Assembly (NCBI GenBank): GCA_965215185.1 | Contig: OZ244034.1 | Coordinates: 1,184,001-1,248,000, forward strand | DNA from: Acidimicrobiia bacterium | GTDB lineage: Bacteria > Actinomycetota > Acidimicrobiia > Spongiisociales > ZC4RG35 | Length of the DNA: 64,000 nucleotides | Reading direction: 5' to 3' | In this document: positions 53,825-56,051 of the stretch, in pieces | How the letters are laid out: each line of letters opens with the position of its first letter | How positions within the stretch are numbered: position 1 is the stretch's first letter | Made by a program: the position numbers and the translations under genes | Notes under the pieces: generated by a model | The model's database searches: none | Told to the model about the DNA's origin: nothing | Seen by the model: only the letters and a program-made list of their open reading frames with translations

Positions 53825-54370
53825 CTATCTGTGTTTTGTGTTGGGGCTTTGGCTACCCGACCCGTAGTGGACCGGAGCCAGCATCATGGTCATGTTGCGG
53901 CCCTCCATCTTGGGGGCCTGTTCCATAACCCCGTCCTCGCTTACGGCCTCGGCCAGCCGGGACAGTAGTTTTTGGCCGTACTCCGGCCTTTCCCGCTCCC
54001 TTCCACGAAAGCGAACGGTCAGTTTCACCTTGTCTCCACCCGTGAGAAACGAAACGACCTTGCGAGTTTGCATGTTAAAGTCGTGGTCTTCAATCCTGGG
54101 CCGCAGCCGTAGCTCTTTGATTACGGTCCGAGTCTGGCTCTTTCGAGCCGCCCTTTCCTTTATCGAGCGCTCGTACTTGAACCGTCCGTAATCCATCAGC
54201 CGACATACCGGAGGATCCGCCATGGGAGCGACTTCCACCAAATCCATATCCAACTGCTCAGCCAGCCACATGGCCTCTTCTAGCTTCTTTACGCCGATTT
54301 GCGCCCCATCCGGCGCTACCAAACGTACTACAGCAGCCCTGATTGCATCATTTACTCGAAGTTCTGCGAT
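53825..54370 (-). CDS. infC: Translation initiation factor IF-3, non-canonical AUC start
   Basis: DLVEVAP..PPVCRLMDYG, GDKVK..FRGRE; frame extends to ATC at 54370 (IAELRVNDAIR), 6 nt after GGAGGAG. Confidence 0.93.
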   Translation of the reverse strand: MAELRVNDAIRAAVVRLVAPDGAQIGVKKLEEAMWLAEQLDMDLVEVAPMADPPVCRLMDYGRFKYERSIKERAARKSQTRTVIKELRLRPRIEDHDFNMQTRKVVSFLTGGDKVKLTVRFRGRERERPEYGQKLLSRLAEAVSEDGVMEQAPKMEGRNMTMMLAPVHYGSGSQSPNTKHR

Positions 54371-54404
54371 TGTTTTCTCCTCCTGTTCATCAGGTTTTCA
54401 GCCA

Positions 54405-54479
54405 GCAGAAGAGTCCGCTCCCAAGAAACCACAGCGCACCAATAACCGGTGGCCGGGTGGGAAGCAAATCAGCCTCCGC
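54405..54479 (-). ncRNA. Structured leader of infC-rpmI-rplT, possible L20-responsive element
   Basis: GCGGAGG..TTGCTTCCCACC ... TGGGAGCGGA-CTCTTCTGC long hairpin downstream of a TATACT -10 (54499-54504). Confidence 0.45.
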
Positions 54480-54531
54480 TTCGTAATAGCTAGCAACAAG
54501 TATACCTCACCTCAGTGAATCTGCCCAAAGT

Positions 54532-55248
54532 TCACCTGATGTCCGACCGGAGAGCGTCCACCACTGCTCGGGCAGCCTGCGAGCCGGCATTGGATCCCTG
54601 TTTGCTACGTGCCACGGCCTGTTCCCATTCGGAGACTGCCAGCACTGAGTTGCCCACCGGGACACCGGTGTCGACCTGCAATTGGATCAGCCCCTGGACT
54701 GCTCCATCCACCACGGACTGGAAGTGATGGGTTTCTCCTTGCAGAACCACCGCGGTTGCCACCACTCCCTGGCACCCTGCCTGGATCAGCCGGCTAGCAC
54801 CCCAGGGAAGCTCCCAGGCTCCTGCGACATCCAATTGAACGATGTTTTTGGACAAAATCCCCATCTCCTCAAGGGTCTCACGGGCCCCCTGTCCCAAACG
54901 TTCTGCGACCGGGACGCCACCCACTTTGTCATATCTGGCAATCACCAATCCCACTTTTGGTTCTTTTCGAGCCCAGGGCAATACGATCAGCCAACCCAAA
55001 CCGATCAACGAACTGACGAACACCCCCAAGGCCGCCAACACAAACACCAAAAAAAAGCTCCAGCCCAGATTGTCTCTGATGTAGAGCAAGCCCACCAGCC
55101 CGATCGCCGATGTTCCCAGCCAGATGACGGTGATAGAAATAGCAACTCGGCGATAGAGTTCGAAGTTAGGTGATCGTCGATGACCGAAGTTGCTCAGACG
55201 TCTGTAGAGATCAGGATTCGGGGGGAACACGGCCAGAAATGTTAGCAA
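54532..55248 (-). CDS. Lumazine synthase (RibH)-like domain fused to two N-terminal transmembrane helices
   Basis: KVGLVIARY, VAGAWELP, VLQGETHHF, QVDTGVPVGNSVL, QAVARS; preceded in frame by two hydrophobic stretches; true start may be 55261. Confidence 0.8.
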   Translation of the reverse strand: MLTFLAVFPPNPDLYRRLSNFGHRRSPNFELYRRVAISITVIWLGTSAIGLVGLLYIRDNLGWSFFLVFVLAALGVFVSSLIGLGWLIVLPWARKEPKVGLVIARYDKVGGVPVAERLGQGARETLEEMGILSKNIVQLDVAGAWELPWGASRLIQAGCQGVVATAVVLQGETHHFQSVVDGAVQGLIQLQVDTGVPVGNSVLAVSEWEQAVARSKQGSNAGSQAARAVVDALRSDIR

Positions 55249-55268
55249 GATCCTTGCCCATCAGGCTC

Positions 55269-56051
55269 CTAGAGCTTGTGCCACTGCCCCAAAAATCTAT
55301 GTACCCCTTCGGCGTGCTCGGGGCCGGAGGTCAACTCCGTCCAGATCCGCTCGGTCTGCTCACTGTCGGTGACTTGGCCTCCCGCCACCATCCTCATCAT
55401 TTTCTTCATCGCTTGAAGCGACGCCTGCGACATATCGCACACTCGGGCCAAGAGGGCGTCGAACTGCGAATCGAAAGAGTCGGATTCGTAAAGTGCAGAC
55501 AGGAACCCGATGCTCAATGCCCTCTCCGCCCCGAAGACCTCTCCGGTGAACAGCAACCATTTGGCATGGGATTCACCAACCGCGGCCACCAGACTGCGCA
55601 GGGCCGCGTAGGGAAACGCCAGCCCCACCCGTGCGGGAGGGAGACTAAAGCGGGCGCCAGGATCCGCCACCCGTAGATCACAAACCATGGCGAGGGCCGC
55701 GCCCCCACCCATGCAGGCCCCGCGAATGGCAGCCACCGTGGGTTTCTTCATGCGGGACACCGCCGAAATCCCTGCTGACACGGACGCACCATTCTCCACC
55801 CCCGTCCCCCCTTGGGAAAGTCGCTCCGCCCATTCCGACACATCGGCGCCGGCGCAGAAGACCGTGGGACTTTCACCCCTGATGACCATCACCTTGCTGC
55901 GGTCGTCCTGATCCGCCTCTTTGGCCAGATCCGCAAGAACCGACCACATCCCATCGCTGAAAGCGTTCCGTCTCTGCGGGCGGTCGATTATCAGATGGGC
56001 AACCTCACCTTGACGCTTCAGATAGAGGGGTCGGGAACTGCTCACCGCCAA
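55269..56051 (-). CDS. Enoyl-CoA hydratase/isomerase family protein
   Basis: FCAGAD, KPTVAAIRGACMGGG, CDLRVA. Confidence 0.92.
   Translation of the reverse strand: MAVSSSRPLYLKRQGEVAHLIIDRPQRRNAFSDGMWSVLADLAKEADQDDRSKVMVIRGESPTVFCAGADVSEWAERLSQGGTGVENGASVSAGISAVSRMKKPTVAAIRGACMGGGAALAMVCDLRVADPGARFSLPPARVGLAFPYAALRSLVAAVGESHAKWLLFTGEVFGAERALSIGFLSALYESDSFDSQFDALLARVCDMSQASLQAMKKMMRMVAGGQVTDSEQTERIWTELTSGPEHAEGVHRFLGQWHKL

Follow-up and report, generated by a model that had tools for sequence, protein, structure and literature searches.

Lumazine synthase (RibH) is a textbook soluble enzyme and a much-used protein-cage scaffold. The His of its GxTxHF motif and the Glu of its G-A-x-E-L-P motif have roles in the active site, and the loop between the last two helices decides the assembly state. 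As set out in PMC2935281, the active sites lie between adjacent pentamer subunits, the N-terminus normally contributes a strand to the neighbour's sheet, strict conservation holds for Arg126 and Thr85, uncharged substitutes for the Arg abolish enzyme activity, the stacking position is Phe or Tyr, catalysis is achieved mainly by proximity and activation entropy, and the Mycobacterium tuberculosis enzyme is pentameric. A membrane neighbour of ribH has also been described: according to PMC2639381, Rv1417 of M. tuberculosis (RibX in Corynebacterium ammoniagenes) is co-transcribed with ribH, occurs in the membrane fraction and has predicted membrane helices near its N-terminus, at 22-44 and 51-72. 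Here, we describe a gene in a 64,000-nucleotide stretch of the genome of an Acidimicrobiia bacterium (contig OZ244034.1, positions 1,184,001 to 1,248,000; hereafter the window) that encodes a two-helix membrane hairpin and a complete RibH domain in one frame. We consider it fairly likely, judging from sequence, that the product is an active lumazine synthase, probably a pentamer, which is tethered to the cytoplasmic face of the membrane.

One reading frame for a membrane hairpin and a lumazine synthase domain

The anchored RibH coding sequence lies on the minus strand, as do all features given below, at 54532..55230, and encodes 232 amino acids from a GTG at 55230 to the stop codon at 54532-54534. 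Residues are numbered throughout in the 238-residue frame that runs from a TTG at 55248 to the same stop. Because a start codon at the ‘FP’ position is kept across the loci of the same genus (GTG in 10 of 11, ATG in the other), GTG 55230 is the likely start in the window, and the database protein P0001 has the identical start. The nearest upstream in-frame stop is at 55264-55266. An earlier note on this DNA had given the span as 54532..55261; the frame is indeed open there, but 55261 is upstream of any usable start.

The earlier note had also read the product as a complete RibH domain preceded by two transmembrane helices and a duplicated motif, and we find all of these in one conserved protein that is under purifying selection. 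The lumazine synthase (DMRL synthase) domain, PF00885, spans residues 98-233 (54550..54957) and scores 110.8 bits against a cut-off of 26.7. TIGR00114 is passed narrowly (88.5 bits, cut-off 84.6), the thresholds of NF000814 (62.1 versus 174) and of NF009084, which we take to be the model of type II lumazine synthase (46.5 bits versus 160), are missed, and Brucella RibH2 chains match weakly (E ~1e-5). AlphaFold2, run with a 26-row alignment, predicts helices at residues 27-56 and 61-95 and, after them, the RibH alpha/beta fold, with a mean predicted local distance difference test score (pLDDT) of 78.6 overall and 81-93 in the domain. The predicted fold matches solved lumazine synthases in Foldseek with target TM-scores of 0.72-0.86 (about 0.8) and root-mean-square deviations of 1.7-3.0 Å.

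Ahead of the domain lies an Arg-rich N-terminal segment (residues 7-34; 55147..55230), predicted to be cytoplasmic, in a region where AlphaFold2 gives a pLDDT below 50 for residues 1-26. It contains two copies of a PNxxLYRR motif spaced 17 residues apart, PNPDLYRR (residues 10-17; 55198-55221) and PNFELYRR (residues 27-34; 55147-55170), a pair found in 10 of the 11 genus loci. Transmembrane helix 1 (about residues 35-57; 55078..55146) and, separated from it by a short RDN/RDD loop, transmembrane helix 2 (about residues 62-92; 54973..55065) are predicted by AlphaFold2 and by Kyte-Doolittle hydropathy alike, the latter marking hydrophobic segments at residues 34-57 and 59-94 (19-residue windows above 1.6). 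In an alignment of 26 proteins, S47 and L54 of helix 1 are invariant, as are S64, G75, V76 and G83, and the conserved small residues of helix 2 (G75, V76, S80 and G83) suggest specific helix packing. Six Arg precede helix 1, the RDN loop is neutral, and R/K/K follow helix 2; by the positive-inside rule, both termini would be cytoplasmic, which would place the enzyme domain on the inner face of the membrane. The linker from helix 2 to the first RibH strand is short, at about three residues (EPK).

The fusion of anchor and RibH is real, neither an assembly nor an annotation artefact. A frameshift, misassembly or gene-calling error that joins a small membrane-protein gene to ribH could in principle produce such a frame, and one database protein (P0028, 241 aa) does carry about 40 garbled residues in the middle of its RibH domain, much as a local frameshift in a metagenome contig would leave. 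The same uninterrupted frame is, however, found in all 11 independent genus genomes, several of them in 1-5 contigs, and in none of these loci are the membrane peptide and ribH separate, an arrangement that the earlier note had considered. Moreover, a word-indexed database search returned 38 proteins, 30 of which span 84-100% of the query at 66-98% identity (the remaining eight are ordinary RibH proteins of 133-166 aa that match in the domain only), and the whole gene is bridged by DNA contigs of other studies (X5 record 19, X11 record 5). The chance of an artefact is thus so slight that we set it aside. The 26-protein alignment consists of the window protein and 25 of these 30; P0013, P0015, P0018, P0019 and P0020, which come from contigs of at most 2 kb, were excluded.

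A different objection is that the anchor might stand outside the working enzyme, with a soluble RibH made from a start near residue 99 or with the hairpin cleaved off, such that the fusion would matter for expression only. Codon 99, which precedes GLVIARY, is GTG in the window and in eight other genus loci, as this explanation would have it, but it is ATA in L024 and GTC in L029. An internal start is therefore unlikely, and the suggestion that translation begins just before KVGLVIARY is not borne out. No Shine-Dalgarno-like run lies ahead of this codon, in line with the earlier note's remark that no internal start of that kind is obvious, and a start here would remove about 10-15 residues that ordinary RibH has before its first strand. 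Finally, the anchor codons are themselves under purifying selection: for the anchor, where 53 of 55 pairs were usable, the 11 genus loci give a median dN/dS of 0.137, compared to 0.087 for the enzyme domain (55 of 55). We regard an anchor-free enzyme as very improbable.

Sole copy, gene order and active site

The anchored gene is the only PF00885 match in the 3.12 Mb single-contig genome, and there is no separate canonical ribH in it. Each of the 17 genus genomes likewise has exactly one match, at 111.7-126.1 bits, whereas the 21 genomes of other genera that matched score 135.5-161.4 bits (in all, 38 of 41 genomes gave a match). The pathway gene ribE is present in 17 of 17 genus genomes and ribBA in 16 of 17, the exception being G010, which is 89% complete and has its ribE at a contig end. 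The absence of other rib genes nearby, which the earlier note had pointed out, is explained by their position: the ribD-ribE-ribBA operon is at 708.9-711.2 kb of the genome and the anchored gene at 1238.5 kb, a distance of about 530 kb, and the operon ends without ribH, facing a convergent gene. The genome also has one further match of each of two kinds, a weak GTP cyclohydrolase II-like one (46.6 bits, within a frame of 423 aa; G000:C1:1430459-1430890) and a RibD_C-like one (55.5 bits; G000:C1:2169671-2170246). Elsewhere, G060 (same family, 99% complete, 2 contigs) and G033 (same order, 97% complete) gave no PF00885 match and may be without riboflavin synthesis or use another route.

In sister genera the order of genes is ribBA-ribH-infC-(rpmI)-rplT (L010, L015). 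Of 19 further family loci, 16 have infC and rpmI after ribH, as do all 11 genus loci, and because this ribH-infC(-rpmI) order is common to the genus and its sisters, the anchored gene is, by position, the orthologue of the ordinary ribH found upstream of infC. Since it is also the sole PF00885 gene and the rest of the pathway has been kept, it most likely does the enzymatic work itself and is not an additional RibH-like protein. In several relatives (L017 of G025, L049 of G021, L086, L087 and L080), ribH lies within an open frame of 350-615 aa; here ribBA and ribH probably overlap or are fused in frame.

We compared the active-site columns of 11 genus rows with those of 27 other rows. The earlier note had called the active site altered, and this is true of part of it only. 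The Thr, His, Arg and Glu are present in every row: the GETxHF motif reads GETHHF in the window, its Thr (T173) and His (H175) are found in 11 of 11 genus rows, and so are the phosphate-binding Arg (R214) and the Glu of the G-A-x-E-L-P motif (E146). The Arg and the Thr, which also binds phosphate, are the two residues for which PMC2935281 gives strict conservation. The stacking aromatic has also been kept (F in eight genus rows, Y in three), and in the window it is Y106, followed by D107. Against this, three features have changed, each of which had been noticed earlier. First, the usual RFN is RYD or RFD in the genus, with Asp in 10 of 11 rows versus Asn in 27 of 27 others. Second, the substrate-binding loop is lengthened after Y106 and D107 by four residues, GGVP in the window (residues 110-113; 54910..54921), an insertion present in 11 of 11 genus rows and 0 of 27 others. 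Third, NKG is NAG in 10 genus rows and NLG in one, where the others have Lys in 26 and Arg in one; in addition, the Glu three residues past this Lys position is Gln in 11 of 11 printed genus rows. In the basal genome G004 (P0030), hairpin and loop insertion are present together with a single PNxxLYRR copy and a retained RFN, and the motif duplication and the Asn-to-Asp change therefore arose later.

Several observations weigh against reading the gene as a lumazine synthase that has simply acquired a tether. The residue changes themselves, namely the loss of the NKG Lys, the Glu-to-Gln and Asn-to-Asp replacements and the insertion in the substrate loop, would fit functional change as well as adaptation to the membrane. 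In a tree of 37 RibH domains, the genus forms one clade (support 100/100) on a stem of about 1.9 changes per site, while no other inner branch exceeds 0.66 and branches within the genus are at most 0.26. The window domain also has the lowest PF00885 score among the 55 matches of a 61-genome phylum sample, at 112 bits; the next one up has 154.5. The conservation of the anchor goes beyond what a plain hydrophobic tether would seem to need and points to a specific interaction that a simple tether leaves unexplained. In addition, a structural model of four copies (see below) contains no confident contacts of the membrane helices, although this is not evidence against helix packing. (The tree leaves out the partial L050 and four loci for which the motif filter returned no open reading frame. 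Three of its ‘other’ rows, which are also in the column counts, come from unpublished genomes, G027, G038 and G172; unpublished genomes G173, G189 and G218 are in the phylum samples, and no claim depends on any unpublished genome alone.)

These points could be accommodated if the protein had become a RibH-derived, membrane-bound binder of lumazine or flavin, a sensor or a scaffold, with the lumazine step left to an unrecognised agent or to no enzyme at all. The lumazine-forming condensation proceeds slowly without enzyme, and a very long stem branch that gives way to strong constraint, the lowest family score in the phylum sample, the loss of the Lys and of the Glu at +3, the Asn-to-Asp change, an insertion right beside the stacking aromatic and membrane helices conserved at specific small residues are all what a new function might leave behind. 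However, the genus keeps a sole PF00885 gene and ribE in 17 of 17 genomes and ribBA in 16, and an intact flanking pathway without an enzyme for its middle step is unlikely. Furthermore, the protein retains the phosphate-binding Arg and Thr, the His, the ribityl-binding Glu and the aromatic, none of which a mere binder would have to keep. Nothing was found in favour of the flavin- or lumazine-sensing role that the earlier note had entertained. On balance, a new function is unlikely, though of the alternatives it is the one we take most seriously.

Origin, distribution and expression

The anchored form is confined to one Acidimicrobiia genus in the samples searched. Among 151 family genomes (38 genera), 147 matched, and coverage of the N-terminal part of the protein was limited to the 11 genomes of this genus; the other 136, which include the unpublished G064, G139, G163 and G172, have a match that begins no earlier than residue 85. 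When residues 1-97 were compared exhaustively by phmmer with 1.84 billion representatives, no relatives of the anchor emerged beyond its own family: of three matches at E ≤0.001, one is the family member P0018, and P0039 and P0040 were rejected as long repetitive proteins matched in 6-11 stretches (P0039, on inspection, is a repeat protein). The restriction to one genus thus refers to the family sample and to this anchor search; fusions of transmembrane segments to RibH in other lineages were not looked for. Similarly, Pfam gave for the anchor alone a best E value of 0.02 (DUF3054), under every cut-off; six-frame translations of the anchor DNA gave against 49 other loci a best E value of 0.014, in a non-coding frame; the gene beside the AhpD-like homologue in genus g47 gave no pointer to the anchor's origin; and the ESM Atlas returned ordinary RibH clusters only, of 132-162 aa with scores up to 0.76.

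These observations are consistent with a history in which, in an ancestor of the genus, a rearrangement separated ribH from ribD-ribE-ribBA. The gene would have stayed where it was and come under a promoter and start of its own, with about 90 new codons added at its 5' end that encode the Arg-rich cytoplasmic segment and the two-helix hairpin. The enzyme domain would now be held directly at the inner membrane face by the linker of about three residues, and the protein would most likely form, by the subunit contacts usual for RibH, a pentamer with ten membrane helices rather than a closed 60-mer. Tethering might benefit the supply of membrane flavoproteins or an exporter; alternatively, the tether may be a neutral by-product of the rearrangement that was later fixed. 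We infer that the protein is catalytically active, as we do its topology, the pentamer, the leaderless start and any advantage that tethering may bring. If this history is right, an essential gene survived the break-up of its operon by gaining an orphan 5' coding region, and went through a burst of change followed by strong constraint.

A promoter of its own is suggested by the DNA just upstream of the start. The sequence TAACAT (55239..55244), which resembles a -10 box of the form TAnnnT, lies 8 nt upstream of the GTG, and such a box is found 7-8 nt before the GTG or ATG in 11 of 11 genus loci (the window and L022-L031) despite differing surrounding DNA, often preceded by TGC; it is absent from the output of a simple consensus promoter scan. 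Leaderless mRNAs are common in Actinobacteria, and together with the conserved box this suggests that the anchored ribH is transcribed from a promoter of its own into an mRNA with little or no leader, which would account for the lack of a Shine-Dalgarno site. Some gene callers translate an in-frame ‘LLKF’, part of which is probably promoter element, not coding sequence. We found no match to the FMN riboswitch in the whole genome, nor in loci L007 and L021. Contigs of two RNA libraries cover 55032-55214, within the anchor codons, and 54533-54763; most of the gene is uncovered and carry-over of DNA is possible, such that these contigs are a weak hint of expression. The uncovered parts carry no weight, as contigs cannot show that expression is missing.

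Downstream of ribH, infC (53825-54322) follows after a gap of 209 nt (54323-54531), which holds the only sigma-70-like site of the promoter scan (54527-54499). This site, TGGGCA-17-TATACT (54499..54527; one found versus 0.3 expected in shuffles), is located between the ribH stop and infC and belongs to the neighbouring gene, not to ribH. Genes for IF3 often have unusual start codons, and the TTG start listed for infC may be wrong. Upstream, an AhpD-like gene is present in 11 of 11 genus loci. Between it and ribH there is in some loci an enoyl-CoA hydratase gene (55269-56051 in the window; the loci concerned are L022, L023 and L026-L030), which is full-length in four of the 11, has several broken frames in L022 (G002) and is missing from six; it is apparently under loss within the genus.

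Assembly at the membrane and comparison with known lumazine synthases

The earlier note had proposed a membrane-anchored pentamer or cage scaffold. The anchor is real and a pentamer is probable, but a closed 60-mer cage is not supported. Every subunit would be tied to the membrane, and with a linker of about three residues a closed 60-mer is implausible, as a closed shell would be unable to place all 60 N-termini in one bilayer. In the anchored protein, the stretch that joins the last two helices reads ARSKQGSNAGSQ; it is two residues longer than in the icosahedral Salmonella enzyme 3mk3 and of the longer kind found in actinobacterial relatives of the pentameric type. The observation in that note is confirmed and its interpretation holds in part: the architecture stands, but the closed cage and the sensing role are not supported.

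A model of four copies (residues 27-238) reaches an interface score (ipSAE) of 0.78 versus 0.00 for the best control, possibly through memory of solved pentamers; the ipSAE mark used is reached by 20 of 30 solved pairs and by 1 of 23 single chains. At least 59% of contacts are common to the runs, with a partner pLDDT of at least 72. Confident contacts fall only in residues 137-238 and involve two different faces, in a ring-like arrangement.

We also considered that the five hairpins of a RibH pentamer might form a specific ten-helix membrane module, which could dock the last riboflavin steps on a membrane partner, or pass lumazine or riboflavin to the membrane or across it. Small residues of the helices are conserved and the dN/dS is 0.14, beyond the needs of a passive tether, but we regard such a module as a rather improbable elaboration. 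For the protein as a whole, a tethered lumazine synthase that is probably pentameric is the reading that we favour.

In the full-text literature (subscription journals were outside its scope), we found no description of a natural membrane-bound RibH, only engineered constructs, and the earlier note's impression that the architecture had not been described is borne out as far as this literature goes. If the favoured reading is correct, a natural membrane-anchored lumazine synthase as an organism's only copy would be new, and it would show that the pentamer can work while pinned to the bilayer. Measured against the soluble, cytosolic norm of about 150-170 aa, the anchored protein is longer, at 232 aa, and has two predicted membrane helices. 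The closest comparison is with the ordinary RibH of sister genera (L010, L015, L032), which is encoded in the same place upstream of infC-rpmI-rplT, belongs to the same fold family and is 35-48% identical to the window domain. These proteins have the same Thr, His, Arg, Glu and aromatic, and some of them share VAGAWELP and PVGNAVLA with the anchored protein. They differ from it in their length (about 145-160 aa), in having no membrane helices, in RFN/WN and NKG, and in the absence of the four-residue insertion, and their ribH start overlaps the ribBA stop in the two loci read (L010 and L015).

Among solved enzymes, those of the pentameric type I (M. tuberculosis 1w19, S. pombe 1kyv and the yeast enzymes 1ejb, 4kq6 and 2jfb) match in sequence at E values of 1e-11 to 1e-13 and in fold. 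As judged from the alignment to S. pombe, the yeast enzymes share with the anchored protein the loss of the NKG Lys, and this Lys is therefore not universal. All of these enzymes are soluble and have no membrane segment, whereas the anchored protein has a helix in place of their free N-terminal stretch. The icosahedral 60-mers (B. subtilis 1rvv, A. aeolicus 1hqk and Salmonella 3mk3) have the same subunit fold, and 3mk3 is the best sequence match, with an E value of 2.2e-15. However, their GTKAGNKG loop differs from that of the anchored protein, and their free N-terminal strand pairs with a neighbour where the anchored protein has membrane helix 2 before strand 1.

The likeness to Rv1417/RibX lies in the link between an actinobacterial ribH and a small two-helix membrane protein, seen in mycobacteria and corynebacteria. 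As described, Rv1417/RibX differs in that it is encoded on its own, downstream of ribH, rather than fused to the N-terminus. Of 30 phylum loci, the motif filter located ribH in 21, and in these we found no two-helix open reading frame after it. RibX/Rv1417 might be a bPH_2 (PF03703) protein; PF03703 has no match in this genome, and none of its matches in the 61-genome phylum sample is adjacent to a listed ribH, such that either this assignment is wrong or the sample contains no operon of that kind. The anchored gene offers a testable lead on the reason for a small membrane protein, of unknown function, in actinobacterial rib operons. If the improbable ten-helix module were to prove true, the fusion would be a natural ‘Rosetta stone’ for the pairing of ribH with RibX/Rv1417 in other actinobacteria, and lumazine synthase at the membrane would be implied more widely.

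Finally, engineered lumazine synthase nanoparticles are likewise fused to a membrane segment or a displayed domain. They differ in that they are man-made vaccine constructs, expressed in eukaryotes and built on the 60-mer, whereas the anchored protein, if it is indeed a tethered enzyme, would provide a ready natural design for membrane display.

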